Sequence record: NC_019718.1
Strand: one strand, 5' to 3'
DNA from: Enterobacteria phage vB_EcoS_Rogue1
DNA: 45,805 bases
Of this stretch, positions 2,547 through 15,895 are shown piece after piece. The notes under the pieces were generated by a model. It searched no databases, had not been told where the DNA came from, and saw nothing but the letters and a program-made list of their open reading frames with translations. The first letter of the stretch is position 1. Every line of letters begins with the position of its first letter. The position numbers and the translations under genes are program-made.

Positions 2547-2924
2547 ATGATATGGATTCACACGTACTACACTGGCAAGTTCAATAGCGTAATGCACAAA
2601 CGAATGTATGACAGCTATGAATCAGCAAAGGCACAGCAGGCAGTCCTAGGTGGCGATATTTCAATCTTACAAGAAGGCTTAATCATGTTCGGACTTACTC
2701 AACCACAATTTAATGCAGTTCGCGCCCAAGCTAAGAAACTTAACGAGGCAGTGGATAAGCTGACAAGCAAGCAGAAGCAGGATAATGACATCATGAAGGC
2801 GATTATCTGTGAGTTTCATAGCCCAGTCAGTACAATCATCGAGAAGATGAAGTTTGTTTGGGTTGCAGGCTATCTTGCTGGTCGCGTAGGTAAGCGTGAA
2901 GATGGGGAGCAGATTTATGACTAA
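2547..2924 (+). CDS. hypothetical protein (125 aa)
   Basis: ORF in the same early cluster; start uncertain. Confidence 0.45.
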   Translation: MIWIHTYYTGKFNSVMHKRMYDSYESAKAQQAVLGGDISILQEGLIMFGLTQPQFNAVRAQAKKLNEAVDKLTSKQKQDNDIMKAIICEFHSPVSTIIEKMKFVWVAGYLAGRVGKREDGEQIYD

Positions 2925-3111
2925 ATCACTAGGGAAAGTCAGATGTATTGTGTCTTACAATGATAAGAAGTTCAAAACTGGTAAATCTTACAGCATTTTG
3001 TCATCACCCGCATATGGTTGGGTTAAATGTGAGTCAGAAGATGGGTGTATAGAGATGGTTAAAGATGGCAATGACATTGAGTTTGGTTACTTTGAGGTAT
3101 TTTATGACTGA
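2917..3111 (+). CDS. hypothetical protein (64 aa)
   Basis: Start refined to an ATG overlapping the upstream stop (ATGA). Confidence 0.4.
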   Translation: MTKSLGKVRCIVSYNDKKFKTGKSYSILSSPAYGWVKCESEDGCIEMVKDGNDIEFGYFEVFYD

Positions 3112-3308
3112 GCTATCAATCTGGTTCCTGGCTGGCATGTTGACGTGGATTTATTTCGTCGTCATGGCTTGACGAAAATGTTAAAAGTGGTTAGTATTAA
3201 CCACGTAGACGGCAATGACCGTAACGCGCATCGCGGAGATGCAAGCCGATAGCCGGGCTGGATAAAGATACGAGGCAAATACCACTACACCAGCGCAAAT
3301 GGTGTATG

Positions 3309-3348
3309 CCGGACCTTTCCGAGGATTGGCCGGACCTTCCGAGGATTG
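3309..3348. repeat. tandem direct repeat CCGGACCTT(T)CCGAGGATTG x2
   Basis: Copies at 3309-3328 (20 nt) and 3330-3348 (19 nt) differ by one T; about 40 bp upstream of the tRNA. Confidence 0.7.
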
Positions 3349-3386
3349 TGAAACCTCCCCGCATTCGGTAAGCGGGACTCATTCTA

Positions 3387-3462
3387 GTTCTGCTGGCGTA
3401 ACAGGATAACGCAGAGACCTCCTAAGTCTCAGTTGCTGGTTCGAGTCCAGTGCGGAACACCA
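3387..3462 (+). tRNA. tRNA-Arg, anticodon CCU (reads AGG)
   Basis: Hand-folded cloverleaf: acceptor GTTCTGC/GCGGAAC (one G-U pair), D-stem GCGT/ACGC, anticodon stem GAGAC/GTCTC, loop CTCCTAA with U33 and A37, 4-nt variable loop, T-stem GCTGG/CCAGT, T-loop TTCGAGT, discriminator A, encoded CCA; 76 nt. Confidence 0.85.
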
Positions 3463-3478
3463 AACATGGAGCATCCTA

Positions 3479-3664
3479 GTGAATAACTACGAAGTCCGTT
3501 TAACTTCCCGCCTAATGGGTCGGCAATGCAAATCTTGCCAGCAATCCTACGAAGGTAGGTTCATTGCTAAAAGCCCTGAAGAAGCAGTTGCAGCCGCAAA
3601 GGCAGCATTTAAGATTGACCTGACAGTCCACAAAGTCAGCGTTGATAAAGTATCCCTCGTTTGA
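3479..3664 (+). CDS. hypothetical small protein (61 aa, GTG start)
   Basis: ORF with GGAG RBS, followed by a rho-independent terminator; weak. Confidence 0.3.
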   Translation: MNNYEVRLTSRLMGRQCKSCQQSYEGRFIAKSPEEAVAAAKAAFKIDLTVHKVSVDKVSLV

Positions 3665-3692
3665 GATTGGTCATCTCGCAATGCAGTACTTT

Positions 3693-3716
3693 GCCCTCCT
3701 TGTGAGGGCTTTTTTT
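3693..3716 (+). terminator. rho-independent terminator
   Basis: GCCCTC-CTTGT-GAGGGC hairpin followed by TTTTTTT. Confidence 0.7.
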
Positions 3717-3763
3717 CGTCCATAGTCATGGTACAATGACTTTTAAAACAGGAGGAATATCAA

Positions 3764-4279
3764 ATGTCAGAAGAGAAAAAAATTCACCAGAAGATTGGTA
3801 ACTTCAAGGAGCTTTACAATAAGAAGTATGGCGACATTGCCAATCTTAAGATTAACCACAGATACACTCCCGAGCAGGTATTCGACATGGCTGTAAGGTA
3901 TTTCAGCTGGGCTGAAGAGCAGGCAATTAAAGCTATCGAGACAGCAAGCTTTCAGGGTGTCGTAACGGAAAACCTTGTTCACAAGCCGAGGGTATTTACG
4001 ATAACTGGATTCCAGCTTTTCTGCGGCGTTGGTCATAATGCTATTAGCAAATGGCGCTCATCACCAGGATTCGATGAAGTTATGGAGTTCGTCGACTCAG
4101 TTATCTTTGAACAGAAGTACCAGTTGGGTGTTAACAACATCGTCAACCCTGGACTTATTGGCAAAGACCTTGGTATTGATAAGCCGCAAGAGGTTAACAT
4201 CAATAACGCTTCAAATGCCGTAGTAAACGATGAGGAAGCAATGAAGGCTGCTCTGGCTTCTGTAATGGATAAACTATGA
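3764..4279 (+). CDS. putative terminase small subunit
   Basis: 171-aa ORF with strong AGGAGG RBS directly upstream of, and overlapping (ATGA), the large terminase gene; assignment by position only. Confidence 0.45.
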   Translation: MSEEKKIHQKIGNFKELYNKKYGDIANLKINHRYTPEQVFDMAVRYFSWAEEQAIKAIETASFQGVVTENLVHKPRVFTITGFQLFCGVGHNAISKWRSSPGFDEVMEFVDSVIFEQKYQLGVNNIVNPGLIGKDLGIDKPQEVNINNASNAVVNDEEAMKAALASVMDKL

Positions 4280-5844
4280 AGACATTAGTTTGGGAAGAAA
4301 TGACGCCAGCCGAAAAGCTGGCAGTTAAAGCGCTGTCCACTCACAGCTTCGAGGCATTCCTTCGCGTGTGGTTTCAGCTAAGCCAGGGAGAGCGATACAT
4401 CCCTAACTGGCATCACAAGTACCTTTGCCGAATAATTGACGAGGTTATTAGTGGCGAGCGTAGGGATACCATCATTAACGTGGCTCCTGGGGCCGGGAAG
4501 ACCGAGATTACTTCAATACACTTCCCTGTATACTCAATGCTTAAGCTAAAGAAGGTGCGAAATCTGAGCCTCTCATTCTCTGACAGTCTGGTGAAGCGCA
4601 ACTCTAAGCGTGTTCGCGACCTTATAAAGTCAGCTGAGTTTCAGGAACTATGGCCCTGTAAGTTCGGCACGTGCAAGGATGACGAGATTCAGGTTCTTGA
4701 CGAGAGTGGAAAGGTTAGGTTCGAAGCGATATCTAAGGCAATTGGCGGTCAGATTACCGGCGCTCGTGGCGGTTATATTACTGAAACCTATAGCGGTTGC
4801 TTGATGCTTGATGACCCAGACAAGCCAGACGATATGCTCAGCAAGGTAAGGCGAGAAGCTGTCCACGTTTTACTTAAAAATACCATTCGCTCACGTAGGG
4901 CGAGTAGCGTTAAAGGTAAAGCTACGCCAATTCTGTCAATTCAGCAAAGGCTTCATACTCAGGATTCAACGTGGTTCATGACTTCTGGTGGTATGGGTAT
5001 CGACTTTGATGTGGTTAAAATACCAGCACTGGTCACTGAAGAATATGTGAATGAACTCCCTGACTGGATTCGTGAGCAGTTCGAGAAGGACGTGCTTTCA
5101 TCCGAGTACGTCGAGCGAGATGGTGTTAAGTATTACAGCTACTTCCCGCAGAAGGAATCTGTGCATGACTTGATGGCAATGTGGGACTCAGATCCGTACA
5201 CGTTCCTAAGCCAGTACCAACAATCTCCAGTAGCCTTAGGTGGAAACCTGATTAACGTAGATTGGTTCGTGAGGCTTGACGAGAACAACAGGCCGCCAGT
5301 CAAGTATGACTACCGCTTCATTACAGCTGATACTGCCATGACTACGAAGAGTTACAGCGATTATTCTGTGTTCCAGCTTTGGGGTAGAAAGGATAACAAG
5401 ATTTATCTTCTGGATATGGTTAGGGGTAAATGGGAGGCTCCAGAGCTTGAGCAAAACATTCTGGAATTTGAGAGTAAGCACCGAGCAACTAGTAAAACAG
5501 ATGGTATCTTACGTAAGGTTATTATCGAGAAGAAAGCATCTGGCATAGGGCTTATCCAGTCAGCAGGTCGAACGATGCGGACTCCTATCGAGCCTTTCGT
5601 TCCCGATACAGATAAGTTAACCAGGGTGATGAGCGCATTACCACAGATTAAGGCTGGTAACGTAGTTCTGCCAGACTCAGCGCCATGGCTTACATCTCTG
5701 CTAACTGAGTTCTCGGCGTTTACTGCGGACGATTCACACCCCCATGATGACATTGTAGATACAACAACGATGGCAATAAACTGTGAATTGAACTTGAGTG
5801 ACGACCCAAGAGCTAGGTTAATGCGACTAGCTGGAGTTAAGTAA
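4276..5844 (+). CDS. terminase large subunit
   Basis: 522 aa with an N-terminal ATPase-like region (VAPGAGKTE, acidic LMLDDPD) and an acidic C-terminal nuclease-like region; sits immediately before the portal gene. Confidence 0.8.
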   Translation: MKTLVWEEMTPAEKLAVKALSTHSFEAFLRVWFQLSQGERYIPNWHHKYLCRIIDEVISGERRDTIINVAPGAGKTEITSIHFPVYSMLKLKKVRNLSLSFSDSLVKRNSKRVRDLIKSAEFQELWPCKFGTCKDDEIQVLDESGKVRFEAISKAIGGQITGARGGYITETYSGCLMLDDPDKPDDMLSKVRREAVHVLLKNTIRSRRASSVKGKATPILSIQQRLHTQDSTWFMTSGGMGIDFDVVKIPALVTEEYVNELPDWIREQFEKDVLSSEYVERDGVKYYSYFPQKESVHDLMAMWDSDPYTFLSQYQQSPVALGGNLINVDWFVRLDENNRPPVKYDYRFITADTAMTTKSYSDYSVFQLWGRKDNKIYLLDMVRGKWEAPELEQNILEFESKHRATSKTDGILRKVIIEKKASGIGLIQSAGRTMRTPIEPFVPDTDKLTRVMSALPQIKAGNVVLPDSAPWLTSLLTEFSAFTADDSHPHDDIVDTTTMAINCELNLSDDPRARLMRLAGVK

Positions 5845-5893: not shown

Positions 5894-7168
5894 ATGGTAA
5901 AAGCAGACAGCTACGCAAACATCTTTCTTAGCGGTAGTGATGGTAGTGAGGTTTACGGAAAGTTTGGCAGCCTTGGCCTAACAGATCCAGCGCAGCTTGA
6001 GCAACTTTACGTCAGCAGCGCTCTAGTTCGTCGAATTATTGATATCGTTCCAGAGGTCGCACTTGGCGCAGGCTTTAGCATTGAAGGTATCGACGACGAA
6101 GGTGCTTTCTGGTCGCGATGGGATGATTTAGGCCTTTCAGATAACGTAATCGACGCACTAGCCTGGGCGAGACTATACGGTGGCGCTGCTGTAGTGGCAA
6201 TTGTGAAGGATGGAAGGGCGCTAACCAGCCCAGCTCGTGAAGGTGCGGAGCTTGAAACGGTTCGTGTGTACGACCGGCAGCAAATTAAGGTCCAGACTCG
6301 CGAGGAGAATCCACGTAACGCGCGTTTTGGTAAGCCATTAACTTACCGCATCACACCAAACGGGTCGGCAACGTTCTACGATGTGCACTATACACGCTGT
6401 CACATCATTGATGGCGAGCGAGTACCTAACAACCTACGTCGTAATAACGATGGCTGGGGCGCAAGCGTACTAACTGGTGACTTAATTGACGCGATTGACG
6501 ACTATCAGAACTGTGAGCGACTGGCTACTCAGTTACTTCGTCGTAAACAGCAGGCGGTGTGGAAAGCAAAAGGCCTTGCTGACTTATGTGATGATTCAGA
6601 TGGATTTGGAGCAGCTCGTTTACGTCTGGCTCAGGTGGATAATAACAGTGGCGTTGGTCAGGCTATCGGGATTGACGCGGATAGTGAAGAGTACAACGTT
6701 CTCAACTCAGATATTGGCGGTATTGATACATTTCTGAGTCAGAAGTTCGATCGAATCGTTGCTCTGAGCGGTATTCATGAGATTATCCTTAAGGGTAAGA
6801 ATGTTGGTGGTGTGTCAGCAAGCCAGAACACTGCTCTAGAGACTTTCTACGGTTATGTTGACCGTAAGCGCAAGGCTGAATTATTGCCTCTGCTTGAGTT
6901 CCTGCTGCCGTTCATCGTAACCGAGCAGGAGTGGTCAGTAGAATTTAACCCTCTATCGCAGGTTAGTGACAAGGATAAATCTGAGATTCTTGAGAAGAAT
7001 GTTAACTCAGTTGCTGCATTGATTGCAGCTGGAATCATTGACGCAGACGAAGCAAGAGATACGTTGCGCGCAATTTCAACTGAGGTTAAGATTGGTGAAG
7101 GCTCAATTCAAACGGAGGTTGTAATTAATGAATCAGAAGACCCGCTGGATGTATCCGCAAATAATTGA
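5894..7168 (+). CDS. portal protein
   Basis: 424 aa; GGAG RBS; position between the terminase and head-morphogenesis genes. Confidence 0.7.
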   Translation: MVKADSYANIFLSGSDGSEVYGKFGSLGLTDPAQLEQLYVSSALVRRIIDIVPEVALGAGFSIEGIDDEGAFWSRWDDLGLSDNVIDALAWARLYGGAAVVAIVKDGRALTSPAREGAELETVRVYDRQQIKVQTREENPRNARFGKPLTYRITPNGSATFYDVHYTRCHIIDGERVPNNLRRNNDGWGASVLTGDLIDAIDDYQNCERLATQLLRRKQQAVWKAKGLADLCDDSDGFGAARLRLAQVDNNSGVGQAIGIDADSEEYNVLNSDIGGIDTFLSQKFDRIVALSGIHEIILKGKNVGGVSASQNTALETFYGYVDRKRKAELLPLLEFLLPFIVTEQEWSVEFNPLSQVSDKDKSEILEKNVNSVAALIAAGIIDADEARDTLRAISTEVKIGEGSIQTEVVINESEDPLDVSANN

Positions 7169-7892
7169 GAGCCAGATTAATCGCAGCCTTTTGGTTGCGG
7201 TATCTGAACTTATTGAGCAAATGAAGTTATCTGCAAAGAGGCTAAAAATTGACACAGCGCAGGAGATTGAAGAGGAAGATTCAGACCTTTCAGATGTAAT
7301 CTCAGCGCTGCTATCTGGTTTTGTTTCCACTCTGCCTGCGCTGGCACTAGCAATATATCGTTATAACTCGGCGCAATTCCTTAAGGTGGCCAACAACTCC
7401 GGAGGTAAGAATAATCCTGTAGTTCTTGCGCTAGGATTGTATGGTATTAACGCGGATGAACCATGGTGGCTCGACACCAGGAACTCCTGGATTGTTGGCA
7501 CGCAGTTAAGTGCATCAAAGCTGCTAAACAACATCAAGGATGATTTCATAAACAACGCCATTACTGCGCAGGCTGGTAACACTGTTGACCTTGATGATAG
7601 ATACCGAATCTACAGAAAGAGAACAGCAAATATCGCTGCTGGAATTACAGGGTCTCTAAACTCAAACCTTATGCGGAGAAGGCTTGAAGATGCCGGTGTA
7701 TCTCAGTATGTTTGGCGTGGTAGACTTGACGACAAAGAGCGACCATCTCACGTTTTGCGTGAGGGGGTTAGCTTTAAATCAGATGGTTCAGACGCTGGAA
7801 AACTTGACGGCCTTGCGATATTCCCCGGTCAGCAATACGGGTGTCGTTGCTGGGCTGTTCCTAAATGGGAGAATTTAATTAATGAAGAGTAA
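7128..7892 (+). CDS. head morphogenesis protein (Mu F / SPP1 gp7-like minor head protein)
   Basis: Position after portal; C-terminal GQQYGCRCW motif resembles the conserved motif of F-like head proteins (from memory). Confidence 0.6.
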   Translation: MNQKTRWMYPQIIESQINRSLLVAVSELIEQMKLSAKRLKIDTAQEIEEEDSDLSDVISALLSGFVSTLPALALAIYRYNSAQFLKVANNSGGKNNPVVLALGLYGINADEPWWLDTRNSWIVGTQLSASKLLNNIKDDFINNAITAQAGNTVDLDDRYRIYRKRTANIAAGITGSLNSNLMRRRLEDAGVSQYVWRGRLDDKERPSHVLREGVSFKSDGSDAGKLDGLAIFPGQQYGCRCWAVPKWENLINEE

Positions 7893-8991
7893 AATGCGTT
7901 ATGATAGCGCCAAGGTAAAAGCCCGTTTCGATGAGAACGGTTTTCTCGTGGACACCCCAGTGGTTGCTCGCGTAGGTGTACAAACCTACTATATGCCAGA
8001 TGGTTCAGAGCGCCGAGAGTTCCGTCCGGCTTCAGAGGTTTTTAAAGCCGATTCGCTGCAAAGTTACCAGGGTAAGCCGCTTACTCTTGGTCACGTGGTT
8101 GTAAACTCTGAAAATGCTAAAGAGGTGGTTGTTGGTTCTGTATCTGGGTCAGCAATGCGTCAGGACTCGGCAGTGATTGTTCCTCTTACCGTTTACGACA
8201 AGGAAGCAATTGAGAAGGCCAAGTCTGGCGTTGCTGGTGAGCTCTCTGTTGGCTACAACACTGTTGACATTGAGTCTCCTGGCTGGGGTAGTAATGAAAC
8301 GGGTGAGTACAAGCTTGATGGAGAGTACGCAAGCCAGGATGAGATTCCTGCTGATTGGGTACGCTTTGATGCGCTACAGACGAATATCGTTGTTAATCAT
8401 ATCGCACTCGTATATAAAGGTCGCGCAGGTATTGCTAAACTCAATCTGGACGCGGAACAGGAAAACCCGTATACTGATACCGTTCAATCAAATAAAGAGG
8501 ATAAATTGATGATTAAGATTAAACTCGATGGCGAACAGGAGTTCGAAATCGCCCCGGAAGTTGCTAAGCATATCGAAGCTGTTAAGGCTGATGCGGAGCA
8601 GGCTAAAGCTAAAGCTGACACTCTGGAAGCTGAGCGCGACGCACTGAAAGCTAAAGTTGATGGCATCCCCGCTGAAATCGAAGCTGCTTTAGCCAAAGCT
8701 AAGACTGATGCTGACGAAATGGCTGCCCTGGTCGCAGTTGCCGCAGAAGCTGGCGTTAAATGTGATGGCCTGGATGCTAAAGCAATCAAAGTTGCTTACG
8801 TTAAAGAAGTGTCTGGTATTGAAGTTGCTGAGAAATCTGACGCATACATCGATGCAGCCTTTGATATCGCTAAAGATAGTGATAAAATGGCCGAAGCCCG
8901 CAAAGCAGTTGCTGCTGCGGATAAATCTGACGCAGCCGACGCGCCTAAGAAATTAGACCCGCGCGCTCGCCTCGCTAAATTGAAAAAATAA
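7882..8991 (+). CDS. scaffolding-like protein (Ala/Lys/Glu-rich coiled-coil C-terminal half)
   Basis: C-terminal half is low-complexity AKAKAD/AEAE-rich, typical of scaffolds; lies between the head-morphogenesis and capsid genes. Confidence 0.55.
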   Translation: MKSKMRYDSAKVKARFDENGFLVDTPVVARVGVQTYYMPDGSERREFRPASEVFKADSLQSYQGKPLTLGHVVVNSENAKEVVVGSVSGSAMRQDSAVIVPLTVYDKEAIEKAKSGVAGELSVGYNTVDIESPGWGSNETGEYKLDGEYASQDEIPADWVRFDALQTNIVVNHIALVYKGRAGIAKLNLDAEQENPYTDTVQSNKEDKLMIKIKLDGEQEFEIAPEVAKHIEAVKADAEQAKAKADTLEAERDALKAKVDGIPAEIEAALAKAKTDADEMAALVAVAAEAGVKCDGLDAKAIKVAYVKEVSGIEVAEKSDAYIDAAFDIAKDSDKMAEARKAVAAADKSDAADAPKKLDPRARLAKLKK

Positions 8992-9002: not shown

Positions 9003-9470
9003 ATGGCAATTCGTCGTCAAGCTACTGCTGGTATGGTTGCAGATACCTCTCTGTACAATATTGATGGTGCCTGTGTAACATCTTCGGCTCTCGTGCGCAA
9101 TGTTGGCACTGCTGTTGGAGTTGATTCTGTTGTTGATGGTCACAAGGTGCTGGTAGCTCCGGCACCTGGTAATGTTTACGGCGTTCTGGTAAGGTCGCAT
9201 TACGAGTCTCCTAAAGGAACTTATGGCGGTTCTGCTGGTGATGTTGACAACTTCTCCGTGTCTAACGTAATGACTCACGGTCGAATCTGGATGGCAACTA
9301 GCCTTTCAGCAGCTCCTGCATTTGGTAGCGCCGTTACCGTTGATGCCAATGGATTAGCAACAAGCGGCGGCACCTTAACTACTAACTGGACATTCGCAGG
9401 TGGATTCCAGGCAGCTGATGCCGCATCTGGAGAGCCAGCACTGGTTGAGGTTCAGGTTATCCAAAAATAA
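9003..9470 (+). CDS. head decoration or other abundant capsid-associated protein
   Basis: 155 aa, Gly/Ala/Val/Thr-rich; strong terminator immediately downstream suggests high expression; position inside the head module. Confidence 0.45.
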   Translation: MAIRRQATAGMVADTSLYNIDGACVTSSALVRNVGTAVGVDSVVDGHKVLVAPAPGNVYGVLVRSHYESPKGTYGGSAGDVDNFSVSNVMTHGRIWMATSLSAAPAFGSAVTVDANGLATSGGTLTTNWTFAGGFQAADAASGEPALVEVQVIQK

Positions 9471-9563: not shown

Positions 9564-11009
9564 ATGGCTTACACAGAAATTGCTATGGCAGTAGGTAATT
9601 CACCTGAAACCTTAGCCAGAAACGTAAAAATGATGATTTCATCAGGATTCCAGCCATATGGCGACGTGCAGATGCTGAGCGGTACCCTATTTGGCATGAA
9701 GATGGCAAAAGGAACAGCAAACAACGTTGAAGACTTCATGGTTACATCAGACACCACAATTCAGGGTTTAGTTAACAGGGTTAACCGATATCTAGCACAG
9801 GGCTGGCGAAGGTTTGGTAATGCCCACTTCGAGGATGGCGCTTATATTTCAGCTCTGGCGAAAGGTGATTTTGTAAGTGATGAGGGCGGAGGTTCAGGTG
9901 AAGCAGGTCCACAAGGTCCGGTTGGTCCAGCTGGCCCCGCAGGCGTAGCTGGTCCGCAAGGTCCGCAAGGTCCACAAGGCCCAGCTGGTGCTACCGGCCC
10001 GGCAGGCGCGGCTGGCGCTAAAGGTGACACTGGCCCCGCAGGCGTAGCTGGTCCGCAAGGTCCACAAGGTGAGACTGGAGAAGCTGGTCCACAGGGTTCT
10101 ATCGGCCCAACAGGCGCCACAGGTCCATCCGGACCAAAAGGTGATAAAGGTGATGCAGGTCCAGTTGGCCCTGCGGGATTGACTTTCCGCGGGATGTACG
10201 ACGCAGCGACAGCTTACGTTAAAGATGATGTTGTTACATTCAATAGCTCCAGCTGGTTTGCTACCACCGCTGTGACCGGAGAGAATCCAGATATTAGCGA
10301 TTCCTGGGAGTTGCTGGCCGCACAGGGCGCCCCGGGTCCGCAAGGCGCAACTGGTCCAACAGGTCCAACTGGCCCGGCAGGTCCGGCAGGTATTCAAGGG
10401 GCTCAGGGAGAGAGAGGGATTCAGGGTGAGCAAGGTCCGTCAGGCCCGCAAGGCTTGCAAGGTGCAGCTGGTCCAGTTGGACCTCAAGGCCCAGCAGGTC
10501 CGCAGGGTGAGCGAGGAATACAGGGTCCGGTTGGCCCTCAAGGTCCAATTGGCCCTAAAGGCGATAAAGGTGACGCAGGGATGTCAAGATCATTCCTTAA
10601 AGTTAGAACATCACCAAATACAGGCACTAATCACATGATTAGGCTTCCAGCACCTTTAAGCAATATTTCTATAGGGATAAGACTGGATTCAAACATTCGT
10701 TTTAGTATTAGGGCTTGGATTGATGATGGCACTACAGCTAGAACTATAAGGGGTAATATTGAAGCGTTCAATGAAACTGGAGTTTACACTAACACAACAG
10801 TAAGAACTTCGATATCTACATCAACAGAAACTGGCACAGTACTTCTTGGTGATATTGGAGAGTTCCAAGGTATCAGGCCATACACTCTTAGTTTTTATGA
10901 AACCACAACAGACACAATGTGGAGAGCAACCATAAATCTATTTACAGCTGGATACATTGTGAATGGAAACCAAGCCCTATGCATAGAGCTAGTAAGGCTT
11001 GATGCATAA
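9564..11009 (+). CDS. collagen-like (Gly-X-Y repeat) protein with non-collagenous N- and C-terminal domains
   Basis: Two long runs of [12 protein letters not shown] triplets (about 9880-10180 and 10320-10580); opposite-strand ORFs here are repeat artefacts. Confidence 0.8.
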
Positions 11010-11037: not shown

Positions 11038-11062
11038 TCCCAATCAAAATCTCGTGTATAAT
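11035..11062 (+). promoter_or_regulatory. sigma70-like promoter (TTGTCC, 16-bp spacer, TATAAT) upstream of the capsid gene
   Basis: Perfect -10 TATAAT at 11057-11062 with a 4/6 -35 hexamer. Confidence 0.4.
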
Positions 11063-11100
11063 TGACACGTAAACTCATAAACAAAAGGATGCATCTTAAT

Positions 11101-12048
11101 ATGACTATCAAACTTGACGCTTTCGAGCAAGAAAAGATTACTAACCACCTGCGAGCTATGGGCGTTGATAAGGCTGATGCGGCTGGTATCTGGACCGTGA
11201 AGCAGCTAACTGCAAGCCTGAATAAAGCTTACGAAACTGAGTACGACCAGAACTCCGTAGTAAACCTGTTCCCTGTAAGCAATGAAATTCCCGGCTATGC
11301 TAAGTACTTCGAGTATCCGGTATTTGATGGCGTTGGTATTGCTCAGATCGTAGCTGACTACACTGATGACCTGCCACTTGTTGACGCTTTAGCAACTGAA
11401 CGTCAGGGTAAAGTTTTCCGTTTTGGTAATGCTTTCTTGATTTCCATCGATGAAATTAAAGTTGGTCAAGCTACCGGTCAGTCACTATCTACTCGCAAGC
11501 AATCTCTTGCTTTCGAAGCTCACGATAAGCTGCTTGATAAACTGGTATGGTCAGGCTCTACTGCTCACGGTATCCCGAGTGTGTTCGACTATCCAAATAT
11601 CAACAACGTTGTTAGCGGTGGCTCATGGTCTCAACCAACTACAGCAGTAAGCGATATTACAAGTCTGCTGGATATTATCGAGACTTCAACCAATGGTCAG
11701 CACCGTGCAACTCACCTGCTTCTGCCTACTACCGCTCGTCGTATCATGCAGAACCTGGTTCCTGGTACCTCTGTTAGCTACGGTGAGTTCTTCCGCCAGA
11801 ACAACAGCGGAGTAACTGTTGAGTTCGTTCAGTACCTGAATGATTACAATGGCACTGGCACCTCTGCTGCTATTGCTTATGAGAAAGACCCTAACAACAT
11901 GGCCATCGAGATTCCTGAAGCGACTAACGCACTGCCAGCTCAGCCGAAGGATTTGCACTTCCGTGTTCCGGTAACTTCTAAAGCAACTGGTTTGATCGTG
12001 TTTAGGCCTTTAACGATGGCTGTAATGAAAGGCATTACTTTCGCGTAA
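11101..12048 (+). CDS. putative major capsid protein
   Basis: 315 aa (start refined to the ATG after AAAGGA RBS), flanked by strong terminators, positioned after the scaffold and before the neck genes. Confidence 0.65.
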   Translation: MTIKLDAFEQEKITNHLRAMGVDKADAAGIWTVKQLTASLNKAYETEYDQNSVVNLFPVSNEIPGYAKYFEYPVFDGVGIAQIVADYTDDLPLVDALATERQGKVFRFGNAFLISIDEIKVGQATGQSLSTRKQSLAFEAHDKLLDKLVWSGSTAHGIPSVFDYPNINNVVSGGSWSQPTTAVSDITSLLDIIETSTNGQHRATHLLLPTTARRIMQNLVPGTSVSYGEFFRQNNSGVTVEFVQYLNDYNGTGTSAAIAYEKDPNNMAIEIPEATNALPAQPKDLHFRVPVTSKATGLIVFRPLTMAVMKGITFA

Positions 12049-12111: not shown

Positions 12112-12597
12112 ATGAACTACAACGACTATTTCGCTTATGATGACGGAAAGATATTCTGGACTTCAAAAACAACAGATATGGCGCACAACATAAGACTTGG
12201 GGATGAGGCCGGGACTTGCAATGGTCTTGGTTACAAAAGGGTTATGTTGTTTGGTAAGCACACCATGGTTCATCACATAGTTTGGATCATGCATGGCAAT
12301 GAGATACCAAAGGGCATGGAGGTTGACCACTTGGATCATGATAGGCGCAACAACAGGATAGAGAATCTAAGGCTGGTAGACAGGGGTGTAAACATGAGGA
12401 ATAAGTCTACGTACAGGAACAGCAAGACCGGTCACCATGGAGTTACTATCAGGCCGGACAGTGGAAAGTATCGAGCTAAGATAACGATTAATAAGAAGGT
12501 TATCAACTTGGGTACTTTTGATTCAATAGATGACGCAATATCAGCCAGAAAGGATGCGGAAGTAAAGTATGGATTCCATGCCAACCACGGGGTATAA
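12112..12597 (+). CDS. HNH homing endonuclease with C-terminal AP2-like DNA-binding domain
   Basis: HNH core VDHLDHDRRNNRIENLRLV..N; C-terminal GVTIRPDSGKYRAKI...LGTFDSIDDAISARKDAEVKYGF resembles an AP2 domain; AGGAGG RBS. Confidence 0.85.
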   Translation: MNYNDYFAYDDGKIFWTSKTTDMAHNIRLGDEAGTCNGLGYKRVMLFGKHTMVHHIVWIMHGNEIPKGMEVDHLDHDRRNNRIENLRLVDRGVNMRNKSTYRNSKTGHHGVTIRPDSGKYRAKITINKKVINLGTFDSIDDAISARKDAEVKYGFHANHGV

Positions 12598-12915: not shown

Positions 12916-13317
12916 ATGAATGAAGAAGTAATTGCGTACATGCGCACGCTTTACCCGCCTCTTAAGAGTCAGCCTGATGATGTTCTTAACGCATGGATTG
13001 AGGTGGCCAGGCTATTTATCTGCTTAGATAAGTTTGGCGACAAGCAGGTTCAGGCATTGGCATTCTACACGCTTCACTTGCTTAGCCAGGATATCGCGCT
13101 TAAGACTGAGAATGATTCAAGCCAGACATCCTCTGAACGGGTCAAGTCCTACTCCCTTTCCGGTGAGTACACGATTAGCTACGATACAAGCACTGCCGCA
13201 GCGAGTTCATCTAACCTTGAAGCATCCTCGTGGGGTAAGCTTTACATTGATTTGATGCGTCGCAAGGTTGGTCGTTGGGGACTGATTACGGCTGGCGGCG
13301 CGAGGTGCTGCCGATGA
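12916..13317 (+). CDS. putative head-tail connector (gp6-like)
   Basis: 133 aa; first of four translationally coupled ORFs between the capsid and major tail genes; assignment by position. Confidence 0.45.
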   Translation: MNEEVIAYMRTLYPPLKSQPDDVLNAWIEVARLFICLDKFGDKQVQALAFYTLHLLSQDIALKTENDSSQTSSERVKSYSLSGEYTISYDTSTAAASSSNLEASSWGKLYIDLMRRKVGRWGLITAGGARCCR

Positions 13318-13682
13318 ATCATGCACTTTTGCAGCAGCAAATTAAAGCTGGTATCAATCTCCTGTCAGATGGTGATGGCGTTTTCGAAGCTACAACTCAA
13401 CCAACCATCTCGATCGTAAATGGCTACGAAGTGCGCACGCCTGGCACTTCATACACAGTGCGAGGTGTTATCCGTGAGTTTAAAGCGCGAGACATTGACG
13501 GTGAAATCATCAAATTTGGTGACCGTCGCGGAATTTTTACTGCTGATTCAGTTGTATCGGAAGGCGACCGCATCTACATTGACCGGGAAGCATATACAGT
13601 AATAGACCCGCGACCAGTGAAGCCAACAGGTACGGTAATCGCGTACAGGCCAGTGCTTAGGAGGGCTGCAACTTATGGCTAA
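13314..13682 (+). CDS. putative head-tail adaptor / head closure protein
   Basis: Start refined to an ATG overlapping the upstream stop (ATGA); position. Confidence 0.4.
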   Translation: MNHALLQQQIKAGINLLSDGDGVFEATTQPTISIVNGYEVRTPGTSYTVRGVIREFKARDIDGEIIKFGDRRGIFTADSVVSEGDRIYIDREAYTVIDPRPVKPTGTVIAYRPVLRRAATYG

Positions 13683-14103
13683 TGACGTTGTTATTTTCAG
13701 GAACTCAATTAACGCATGGATTGATGGCGTGACAGAGGGCGTAGAATTGATTGTGGAAGGCACGCTAACCAAGGCTACCAACGACATCGTTAAGCTATCT
13801 CCGGTTGATACGGGTCGATTCAGGGGCAACTGGCAGGCAACTGGCAACTCACCTGCCGCGCAGTCGCTGAATAATTACGACCCTGACGGCAATGAGACTC
13901 GTAACTCTCTTCGCAGGCAAATCTACGCACTGGCCAGGGATAACAATACGAAAGTAATTTACATTACCAACCGTCTTGATTATGCGCAATTTCTTGAGTT
14001 TGGTTCATCCAATCAGGCACCTTCTGGTGTTCTTGGAGTTGTCCAAAAGAGGCTTGGCCGTTACTTTGCTGAGGCGGTACAGGAGGCTAAACGTGCACTA
14101 TGA
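13675..14103 (+). CDS. putative neck protein (HK97 gp10-like)
   Basis: Contains DTGRFRGNW, resembling the conserved motif of gp10-like proteins (from memory); position. Confidence 0.5.
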   Translation: MANDVVIFRNSINAWIDGVTEGVELIVEGTLTKATNDIVKLSPVDTGRFRGNWQATGNSPAAQSLNNYDPDGNETRNSLRRQIYALARDNNTKVIYITNRLDYAQFLEFGSSNQAPSGVLGVVQKRLGRYFAEAVQEAKRAL

Positions 14104-14491
14104 AATGATGGTTGCAGCAAGGAAACTGGTTAGTGATGCGGCAGTTGATATTGCTGGCAGTCTACCAGTTGCTTACGAGAACTGCGGATTCACGCCACCC
14201 AAAAACGGAAGTTCATGGTTGAAGTTTGATTACACGGAGGTTGATAGTGTGACATGGGGATTGCAGCGAACATGCAGGTATTACGTAGGCATGGTTCAGG
14301 TCTCTATATTCTTTTCACCAGGTGAGGGGACTGATAGACCTCGCCAATTGGCTGGGCGATTGTCAGAAGCTTTCGCCGATGGTACAATGCTTGACAGCGG
14401 ATACATTTATGAAGGCGGATCCGTATTTCCTCCAGTGAAATCGCAATCCGGCTGGTTCATTCCTGTCCGATTCTACGTACGTATGGATTAA
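14093..14491 (+). CDS. putative tail completion / tail terminator protein
   Basis: GTG start 8 nt after AGGAGG (an ATG alternative is at 14105); position just before the major tail gene. Confidence 0.4.
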   Translation: MHYEMMVAARKLVSDAAVDIAGSLPVAYENCGFTPPKNGSSWLKFDYTEVDSVTWGLQRTCRYYVGMVQVSIFFSPGEGTDRPRQLAGRLSEAFADGTMLDSGYIYEGGSVFPPVKSQSGWFIPVRFYVRMD

Positions 14492-14505: not shown

Positions 14506-15156
14506 ATGGCCCATCTCAGCAATGGCACACAAATTTTTTTGCAAGGCTCTAAATCTGAATCGGTAGCCGTAACGGCTATCACTAACGCAGCTCAGCCAGT
14601 TATGACGGTAGCTGACGCTTCAACTTTCGCAGCTGGTGACTTCATTGTTGTTGAGTCATCTTCATGGTCTAAACTTTCAGAGAAACAGTTGCGAGTAGTT
14701 ACATCAACGGCTACAACAATTACCGTTGAAGGCATTGACACTACTGACCCGCTTCAGTTCCCAGCTGGCGGAACGGCATCGATCTACAAGGTTCTTACCT
14801 GGTATGAAATGCCTTGTGTTCAAGACGTTTCAACTGATGGCGGAGAGCAGCAGTTCGTTACTTATCAGTGCCTGGCTGATGACCGTGAGCAGCAGATTCC
14901 AACCTATAAGTCAGCGGTAAACACGACCTATACGTTTGCTCACGAGTTCACCAACCCGATCTACCCGGTACTCCGTAACTACGACGAGTCTGGCGCGCTG
15001 ATTGCGATTCGTGCATACGTTCCTAAAGCTGGCGAAGTTCGACTTTGGACTGGCACTATCGCGTTTAACGAAACTCCAAACGTTTCCGTTAACGAGATCG
15101 AAACTGTATCCGTAGCAATTACGGTACGTGGACGCTATAGCTTCCTGGCTGCATAA
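14506..15156 (+). CDS. putative major tail tube protein
   Basis: 216 aa; followed by a strong terminator; upstream of the chaperone pair and tape measure. Confidence 0.6.
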   Translation: MAHLSNGTQIFLQGSKSESVAVTAITNAAQPVMTVADASTFAAGDFIVVESSSWSKLSEKQLRVVTSTATTITVEGIDTTDPLQFPAGGTASIYKVLTWYEMPCVQDVSTDGGEQQFVTYQCLADDREQQIPTYKSAVNTTYTFAHEFTNPIYPVLRNYDESGALIAIRAYVPKAGEVRLWTGTIAFNETPNVSVNEIETVSVAITVRGRYSFLAA

Positions 15157-15862: not shown

Positions 15863-15884
15863 CTCCCTTTGTGGAGGTTTTTTT
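15863..15884 (+). terminator. hairpin plus T-run (attenuator-like) immediately before the tape measure start
   Basis: CCTCC-CTTTGTG-GGAGG followed by TTTTTTT; the tape-measure RBS GGAGG lies just downstream. Confidence 0.45.
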
Positions 15885-15895
15885 ATGGAGGTTAC

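Follow-up and report, generated by a model that had tools for sequence, protein, structure and literature searches.

A tRNA-Arg(CCU) gene upstream of the terminase genes

The genome of Enterobacteria phage vB_EcoS_Rogue1 (NC_019718.1), which has 45,805 bp and 44.2% guanine plus cytosine (GC) and was analysed over its full length (hereafter the window), carries a 76-nt gene for an arginine tRNA with anticodon CCU, tRNA-Arg(CCU), at 3387..3462 on the plus strand. This is the sole tRNA that ARAGORN calls in the window. Its anticodon (CCT, 3421..3423, +; position 35 of the tRNA in the ARAGORN call) reads AGG only. The Rfam model RF00005 matches the same interval with 56.2 bits (E = 1.4e-9), well above the gathering score of 29 and at the level of a canonical elongator tRNA, and the cloverleaf is the minimum-free-energy fold of the sequence. 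The CCA is encoded in the gene, the 3' end of which reads ...GGAACACCA. The original prediction, made by a model from the letters alone, had proposed a cloverleaf of this length with anticodon CCU and an encoded CCA at this place, and ARAGORN, Rfam and the fold all agree with it.

The stems of the tRNA have 7, 4, 5 and 5 bp, all paired, with one U.G pair in the acceptor stem and one G.U pair in the T stem. The D-loop contains G18 G19 A20, the discriminator base is A73, and the T-loop reads GTTCGA. We compared this structure with 14 phage homologues, which gives 15 phage sequences in the counts of pairs, and with the host gene argW. MAFFT misaligned the variable loop between tRNAs of 76 and 78 nt, and the pairs were therefore counted with a structure-anchored script; pair 4 of the D stem, whose anchor fails for the 78-nt tRNAs, was excluded from interpretation. 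Across the 15 phage tRNAs, six stem pairs show double compensatory changes: pair 2 of the acceptor stem (U-A/C-G), pairs 2 and 3 of the D stem, pairs 1 and 2 of the anticodon stem, and pair 1 of the T stem. The last of these includes G49, the single difference between the tRNA of the window and that of Escherichia phage Jk06. The pair is A-U in Jk06 and phiKP26 and G-C in Sd1, Sf12, and phiEB49, and the G49.U65 of the window, found in none of its Rogunavirus relatives, is the intermediate between the two. G18, G19, A20, C35, U36, T54-T55-C56, the T-loop, and the CCA are invariant in all phage homologues, each of which has A or G at position 73. The identity set of the E. coli arginyl-tRNA synthetase (ArgRS) consists of A20, C35, U36 or G36, and a purine at position 73. 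All these bases are present in the window tRNA and in its homologues, a match at the level of the sequence from which charging by the host enzyme would be expected. Homologues of the tRNA occupy the same site in 107 phage records. This recurrence and the six doubly changed pairs are far beyond chance, which confirms 3387–3462 as a genuine phage tRNA-Arg reading AGG. As judged from the alignments, the substitutions show purifying selection on what appears to be a working tRNA across the divergence of Rogunavirinae and Braunvirinae.

The gene has been described before. Kropinski et al. 2012 (Virol J 9:207; PMC3496638) reported for Rogue1 a genome of 45.8 kb with 44.2 mol% G+C and an arginyl-tRNA at 3387–3462 that recognises "the rare codon AGG". 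Their tRNA is the same object as ours, given there with neither codon counts nor a family-wide comparison. The first bases of the window are not those of the start that the authors quote for their version aligned to JK06; the agreement lies in size, GC, and the coordinates of the tRNA. Because gene, coordinates, and the link to AGG are all in that paper, these parts of our results restate a published annotation; the tRNA is also routinely annotated in related genomes, and codon compensation is the textbook hypothesis for phage tRNAs. The new element is modest and consists of a three-state pattern (CCU, UCU, or no tRNA) with matching use of AGG and AGA, together with a description of the slot that the tRNA occupies.

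Around the gene (2800–4200), the window is 99.7% identical to Jk06 and 94–97% identical to other Rogunavirus phages (Drexlerviridae, T1-like siphoviruses). Several Rogunavirus records annotate a tRNA-Arg at this site, that of UDF157lw explicitly as tRNA-Arg(cct). The genes of AHP24, AHS24, AHP42, AKS96, BECP10, UDF157lw, Sd1, Sf12, and phiEB49 lie in the same slot upstream of the gene for the small terminase subunit (TerS), have the same anticodon, and are 96–99% identical to that of the window. Niu et al. 2014 (PMC4070988) and later genome papers mention one arginyl-tRNA in this group of phages, without codon analysis. The gene is also present, yet unannotated, in the records of Jk06, phiJLA23, C119, phiKP26, Rtp, and DTL; ARAGORN places it at 22138–22213 of our locus L001 (Jk06), at 4893–4969 of L009 and L018 (Rtp), and at 9076–9153 of L020 (DTL). 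These calls contradict the MSK paper (PMC8421802), which states that Rtp and DTL lack the tRNA-Arg gene; that statement is incorrect.

A putative transcription unit around the tRNA

The tRNA lies in a stretch of ~650 bp between small early-type open reading frames (ORFs) from PHROG families of unknown function and TerS (3764–4279, phrog_606), which is followed by the large terminase subunit (TerL, 4276–5844, +). The original prediction, which put it after the early genes and before the packaging module, is right in this respect. By alignment with four relatives (phiKP26, Sd1, Sf12, and phiEB49) and motif scans, we delimited a unit composed, in this order, of a promoter-like site, a leader, a variable stretch with a duplication, a hairpin, the tRNA, a small ORF, and a terminator. 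The sigma-70-type promoter-like sequence TTGACG-17-TAGTAT (3169..3197, +) is ~190 nt upstream of the tRNA. Its hexamers do not vary among the four relatives, in contrast to the spacer. Opt-719 has the site as well, and in the form TTGAC(G/T)-17-TAGTAT it was found in all Rogunavirinae examined. We take it to be the likely promoter of the tRNA unit. The alignment shows a nearly invariant leader of the putative tRNA transcript next (3200..3275, +).

Downstream of the tRNA, a conserved small ORF (3479..3664, +) belongs to phrog_2919 (function unknown, E = 7.8e-29). It encodes 61 amino acids from a GTG, or 49 from an internal ATG at 3515. A GGAG precedes it by 7 nt, and 16 nt separate it from the tRNA; the protein is 96% identical to gp80 of Opt-719. 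The small ORF is probably on one transcript with the tRNA. The unit is closed, before the promoter of TerS, by an intrinsic-terminator-like hairpin, GCCCTCCTTGTGAGGGC followed by T7 (3693..3716, +; motif scan), in which the stem is kept among relatives and the loop is variable. Directly after it comes an extended -10 element, TGgTACAAT at 3729–3737, which is conserved in Sd1, Sf12, and phiKP26 and is followed by AGGAGG and the start of TerS. This suggests that the packaging and late genes may have a promoter of their own. We infer the transcription and the timing of the tRNA unit from these conserved signals.

Some smaller features of the unit deserve mention. Five phages with up to 16% difference between their TerL proteins have almost the same leader. 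Within it is a 16-codon ORF (3215–3265, +), translated as MTVTRIAEMQADSRAG, with two arginine codons, and the only two internal substitutions of the leader (CGG to AGG and GGA to GGG) are synonymous in this ORF; a leader peptide or a small RNA could be encoded here. A search of 3100–3800 against Rfam at E<=1 returned the tRNA and a chance-level minus-strand match over the terminator, and nothing for the leader; a known RNA family was therefore rejected for it. Just upstream, a conserved ORF of 22 codons (3104–3172), below the length cut-off of the ORF list, encodes the very hydrophobic peptide MTELSIWFLAGMLTWIYFVVMA, and its stop codon overlaps the -35 hexamer of the putative tRNA promoter. 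The variable part of the leader holds a tandem duplication of 21/20 bp (3308–3348), GCCGGACCTTTCCGAGGATTG then GCCGGACCTTCCGAGGATTG, which is shared at 100% with Jk06; phiKP26, Sd1, Sf12, and phiEB49 have one partial copy or a different sequence. The hairpin (CCCGC / GCGGG, 5 bp, 3358..3376, +) ends 10 nt upstream of the 5' end of the tRNA. In Sd1, Sf12, and phiEB49, both bases of two pairs are replaced (GCCGG / CCGGC), and the stability of the hairpin shows no excess over shuffled sequence (z = -0.75); a role in pre-tRNA processing or in structure is only a guess. Two relatives have a further tRNA gene, tRNA-Trp in Sd1, where it is inserted between this hairpin and the tRNA-Arg, and tRNA-Val in phiEB49, with the unusual anticodon AAC.

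Comparison with the host tRNA

The host counterpart is argW, for which one gene is annotated in the K-12 region that we examined and which is, to our knowledge, the only tRNA-Arg(CCU) gene of the E. coli genome. The two tRNAs share the anticodon CCU, the anticodon loop CUCCUAA (CTCCTAA in the DNA), G18 G19 A20, A73, and the encoded CCA. They differ in the sequence of all four stems and in length, argW having 75 nt and the phage tRNA 76. A blastn search of the phage tRNA against 5,426 complete E. coli genomes gave no match, which rules out a recent copy of argW, a prophage copy, and an attP–attB relation. Because of this result, and because every stem differs from argW, we regard the gene as one of the phage lineage and not as a recent copy from the host; the same observations fail to support a descent from argW. 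The identity with a host tRNA gene that marks attP-associated tRNAs was likewise absent from the 5,426 genomes.

Use of AGG in the window and in the host

Taking all greedy non-overlapping ORFs, AGG accounts for 172 of the 732 arginine codons of the window and is the commonest of them (11.9 per 1000 codons). Some short minus-strand ORFs in 1113–2597 are probably false, and for this reason the main numbers come from ORFs of at least 100 amino acids, in which AGG reaches 12.4 per 1000 and 24.5% of arginine codons. The RefSeq genes of Jk06 are fragmented and overlapping, hence unusable as a gene set; sequence errors in Jk06 were noted by Kropinski et al. 2012 (PMC3496638). As a host control, two 50-kb pieces of E. 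coli K-12 were processed in the same way, one with the CPS-53 prophage (L004) and one rich in ribosomal protein genes (L092). AGG is the rarest arginine codon in both, with 2.1 and 2.8 per 1000 (4.5% of arginine codons), which bears out the original prediction that it is very rare in the host. The use of AGG in the phage genes, which had been expected to exceed the host average, is 4–6-fold above these samples.

This excess does not amount to a preference. Position-specific base composition predicts 11.7 AGG per 1000 in the window, where 12.4 are observed (ratio ~1.06), and the corresponding ratio in the host is 0.20. A positive codon preference was therefore rejected. Because AGG is only at its composition-neutral level, we describe the pattern as relaxed selection: the phage no longer avoids AGG, and it does not favour it.

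The original prediction had attributed the demand for AGG to AT-rich, probably horizontally acquired genes. This does not hold. AGG is present in 31 of the 39 genes of at least 100 amino acids, and its share of arginine codons per gene is uncorrelated with GC at third codon positions (rho 0.09) or with overall GC (rho -0.10). It is also high in the core gene TerL, which has 10 AGG codons, 5 of them at the 13 arginine sites that are conserved family-wide. The attribution to acquired genes was thus rejected; the shift is genome-wide, as the conserved TerL sites confirm.

The genes singled out by the original prediction are indeed rich in AGG, and Pfam supports their labels. The largest consumer is the tape measure gene (15869..18949, +), with AGG at 32 of 63 arginine codons (31 per 1000). 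The codon had been placed in its central part; by thirds, the counts are 16, 11, and 5, so that the enrichment stands and its position is N-terminal and central. The highest density is that of an HNH endonuclease gene (12112..12597, +; Pfam HNH_3), with 8 of 12 arginine codons (50 per 1000). The J-like tail tip gene (21764..25189, +) has 22 AGG among 54 arginine codons, the tail spike gene (30092–32809, minus strand) 11 among 37, and the Rha gene (27017–27646) 5 among 10. In the gene for a collagen-like protein of 481 amino acids (9564–11009; PF01391, four stretches), 5 of the 7 AGG fall in the last third, in line with the C-terminal domain that had been named. Tandem AGG-AGG pairs, which are prone to stall ribosomes, occur three times in the window and in neither T1 nor the host samples. 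The three lie in the ORFs 13275–13682, 13976–14491, and 25221–26192. As to gene order, the HNH gene lies between the major capsid and neck genes, at a place where the annotations of T1 and Opt-719 have no HNH gene, and it looks like a homing-endonuclease insertion. The collagen-like gene follows the head genes and precedes the major capsid gene; its counterpart in Opt-719 is annotated as a collagen-like possible fibre protein.

tRNA content and codon use across Drexlerviridae

We took 80 loci around TerL from viral contigs and scanned them for tRNAs; the comparison of AGG use covers ~50 Drexlerviridae loci. The site upstream of the terminase genes turned out to be a variable tRNA slot, and its commonest state is empty. 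Where occupied, it contains Arg(CCU) alone, Arg(CCU) with Trp or Val, Arg(UCU), sets of Asn, Ser, and Asp, Ser alone, or, in L085, an array of six tRNAs (Arg-CCU, Ser, Ser, Asn, Trp, and Met; 8322–8969). Further slot tRNAs lie at ~2.1–7.3 kb in L053, L054, and L056, at 8858–8945 in L061, at 8633–8706 in L013, at 3275–3351 in L016, and at 47837–47929 in L008. T1, TH30, and a Hanrivervirus have no tRNA. Opt-719 gave an odd tRNA-like call with a two-base anticodon.

The Arg(UCU) genes are found in Rtp-like Braunvirinae (Rtp, DTL, IME253, CEB_EC3a, and Veterinaerplatzvirus). They are homologous to the tRNA of the window (74–80% identical), lie in the same slot, and have the T arm and the 3' half of the acceptor in common with it. 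They differ in having U34 in place of C34, by which they should read AGA (and AGG by wobble), as well as in their length of 77–78 nt, a variable loop of 5 nt, and different upstream DNA, without the promoter of Rogunavirinae. The carriers of tRNA-Arg(UCU) prefer AGA over AGG.

Codon use differs between the three states. AGG reaches 10.6–14.2 per 1000 in the 5 loci with CCU, 6.0–9.0 in the 6 with UCU, and 2.2–8.8 in the 33 without the tRNA. Relative to the expectation from composition, this corresponds to 1.09 (range 0.99–1.23), 0.66, and 0.36 (range 0.18–0.63), respectively. For AGA, the ratio is highest in the loci with UCU (0.85), followed by those with CCU (0.63) and those with neither (0.49). 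The 13 conserved arginine sites of TerL show the same order, AGG having a share of 38% with CCU, 21% with UCU, and 3% without the tRNA. The result is a synonymous shift, with AGG replacing CGN, in a vertically inherited core gene. Where relatives of comparable GC have no tRNA, AGG remains at ~1/3 of its expected level; selection against the codon thus exists and seems to be lifted only where the tRNA is present. L085 represents an independent lineage, with 59% identity to the window in TerL and only 72% in the CCU tRNA. Its AGG use is 12.7 per 1000, and its TerL contains 11 AGG, as against 1–4 in its nearest tRNA-less relatives.

A probable supplement to the decoding of AGG

We consider it probable that the gene encodes a functional elongator tRNA-Arg(CCU) that supplements the decoding of AGG by the host, and that selection against AGG has been relaxed as a consequence. 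What was directly observed here are the gene, its structure and conservation, the higher use of AGG than in the host, and the link that anticodon and codon use show across the family; the expression and charging of the tRNA, its benefit to the phage, and the direction of causality are what we infer. Starting at the conserved promoter of the unit, the host RNA polymerase would transcribe leader, tRNA, small ORF, and terminator as one short piece immediately ahead of the packaging and late genes. Host RNase P and exonucleases would mature the tRNA, whose CCA is encoded, and host ArgRS would charge it. The phage tRNA would then add decoding capacity for AGG beside the one minor gene of the host, argW. 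This extra supply would relax selection against AGG in the phage lineage, and the codon would rise to its composition-neutral frequency genome-wide, most of all in late genes of low copy number, such as those of the tail.

The tRNA cluster of T4 is the classical example of codon-compensating phage tRNAs. As there, the tRNA is carried by a virulent coliphage and reads a codon that the phage uses often and its host seldom. The present case differs in involving a single tRNA in a 46-kb siphovirus, as opposed to a cluster in a large myovirus, and a homologous gene that occurs with either of two anticodons, each accompanied by the corresponding codon preference.

Several points weigh against this explanation, or at least temper it. 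The gene sets of all genomes, the host included, are greedy ORFs and not curated annotations. Despite the tRNA, AGG is avoided in the virion and assembly proteins of highest copy number: it makes up 2 of the 12 arginine codons of the major capsid gene (11062–12048), none of the 7 of the tail tube gene (14506–15156), none of the 13 of the gene for a 369-amino-acid head protein (7882–8991), and 1 of the 26 of the portal gene (5894–7168). AGG thus stays suboptimal even with the tRNA, and the pattern suggests that selection on codons within the phage is linked to expression. The tRNA classes are phylogenetically clumped, with effectively two CCU and two UCU lineages, and Mann-Whitney p-values, which ignore kinship, overstate the independence of the loci. 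Most Drexlerviridae lack this tRNA and yet have 2–9 AGG per 1000.

A pair of Nouzillyvirus-like genomes is particularly informative in this respect. L051, which carries tRNA-Arg(UCU), and TH30 have TerL proteins that are 95% identical; a clean cassette of ~190 bp (~7280–7470 in L051, against 22143–22146 in L006) is absent from TH30, and the two have the same usage of AGR (AGA and AGG) codons. The tRNA of L051 is 95–96% identical to those of Braunvirinae, whose TerL proteins are less than 75% identical to its own. This suggests a recent horizontal transfer of the cassette, by which one of the UCU lineages would probably have gained it. Because the pair differs by the cassette and not in its AGR usage, we regard the tRNA as accessory, dispensable in principle, with codon use lagging behind its gain and loss. 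The tRNA may permit AGG to drift upwards, or genomes rich in AGG may retain the tRNA. The translational bottleneck that the tRNA was originally proposed to relieve is conjectural, and close relatives do without the cassette. The link between tRNA and codon use, on the other hand, is upheld by the family comparison and the TerL sites, so that the original interpretation survives in this part and loses its bottleneck and its AT-rich, acquired genes.

Other explanations of the tRNA

An "all-destructive" model described in the literature holds that host DNA is degraded early in infection and that the phage tRNA keeps up a limiting isoacceptor for late translation. It fits the distribution of AGG over the modules of the window, which is densest in the late neck and tail genes (20.5 per 1000, 37% of arginine codons), intermediate in the genes for packaging and head (9.6), and lowest in those for replication and recombination (7.2), and it fits a tRNA that directly precedes the late genes. 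Nothing in the sequence speaks to degradation of host DNA or decay of tRNAs, however; a single tRNA for the least-used arginine codon of the host looks more like a specific fix of codon supply than like the maintenance of a pool, and most T1-like phages have no tRNA. We regard this model as unlikely in its own right and as largely a timing variant of a supplement to AGG decoding.

Phage tRNAs may also serve as a counter-defence, replacing a host tRNA-Arg lost to an anticodon nuclease or to a comparable immune effector that targets tRNAs. The literature contains this as an established hypothesis, with colicin D-type enzymes among the nucleases named, and such a role has been proposed for tRNAs of T5 (against PARIS and retron Eco7) and of mycobacteriophages. 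A slot of fast turnover with Arg, Trp, Val, Ser, Asn, Asp, and Met tRNAs would be fitting for the cargo of an arms race, and the stems of the phage tRNA are completely unlike those of argW. The anticodon loop, in which the hypothesis predicts changes that evade a nuclease, is nevertheless the same as in argW. Some relatives have genes related to tRNA damage: Rtp, T1, and Jk06 encode a polynucleotide kinase, and a 30-amino-acid peptide of Rtp is annotated as "similar to T4 Stp, activator of PrrC anticodon nuclease" (L009, 2432–2524 and 1444–1983; L005, 4948–5478; L001, 32538–33011). These genes favour a counter-defence as far as the relatives are concerned. A tblastn search of the window with the three kinases and the Stp-like peptide found no homologue, on which we rejected a tRNA-repair context for the tRNA of the window; the content of genes related to tRNA damage therefore varies within the family. 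We know of no nuclease specific for tRNA-Arg(CCU) in O157:H7, which also counts against this role. A counter-defence alone does not predict that the genome-wide use of AGG and AGA follows the anticodon. It is a rather unlikely explanation by itself, though not mutually exclusive with codon supply.

The tRNA could also be a neutral hitch-hiker, a mobile cassette in a permissive intergenic slot that brings no benefit, in which case the high AGG would be the mutational equilibrium of the lineage. The cassette is a discrete indel between TH30 and L051, it appears mobile between lineages, as the tRNA and TerL identities of L051 indicate, and the AGG of the window is almost exactly as expected from composition. 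Against this stand the compensatory substitutions and invariant identity bases of the tRNA, the conservation of promoter and terminator, and the low AGG of tRNA-less relatives of similar GC, which together make the idea very improbable. That the element has no decoding role, and is instead an RNA processing or boundary signal (an RNase P or RNase E entry site) for the small ORF or the early/late transcript boundary, or else an attP-type target, is scarcely credible: the structured, conserved leader and hairpin context and the small conserved ORF immediately after the tRNA would suit it, but a processing signal needs no conserved anticodon, ArgRS identity bases, or encoded CCA, the E. coli genomes contain no attB-like partner, integration genes are reported to be absent from relatives, and codon use follows the anticodon.

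Implications for the family

The finding as such matters little, since the gene and its link to AGG have been known since 2012. Its residual value lies in similar coliphages of one host species among which the tRNA gene has a CCU anticodon, has a UCU anticodon, or is missing, and whose use of AGG and AGA follows this state even at conserved arginine sites of a core gene. With their small genomes and simple host, with natural knock-outs such as TH30, and with an anticodon switched by a single base, they offer a tractable system in which to ask whether a single phage tRNA alters translation and the evolution of codon use.

A broader reading, which we put forward as tentative and somewhat less probable than not, sees the tRNA as cargo carried by a dedicated and self-contained transcription unit, in a slot prone to recombination where cassettes would be gained, lost, and exchanged between distant lineages. 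One transition between C34 and U34 would separate the versions of the gene in Rogunavirinae and Braunvirinae, and genome-wide codon use would follow the anticodon, with AGG neutral only in the presence of CCU and AGA nearly so with UCU. The invariant leader, with its 16-codon ORF and two arginine codons, might additionally regulate the unit. If this were true, these phages would represent a natural experiment in which the strength with which selection acts on a codon is set, genome-wide, by a single phage tRNA gene, including conserved sites of core genes, and they would bear directly on the contested hypothesis of codon compensation.

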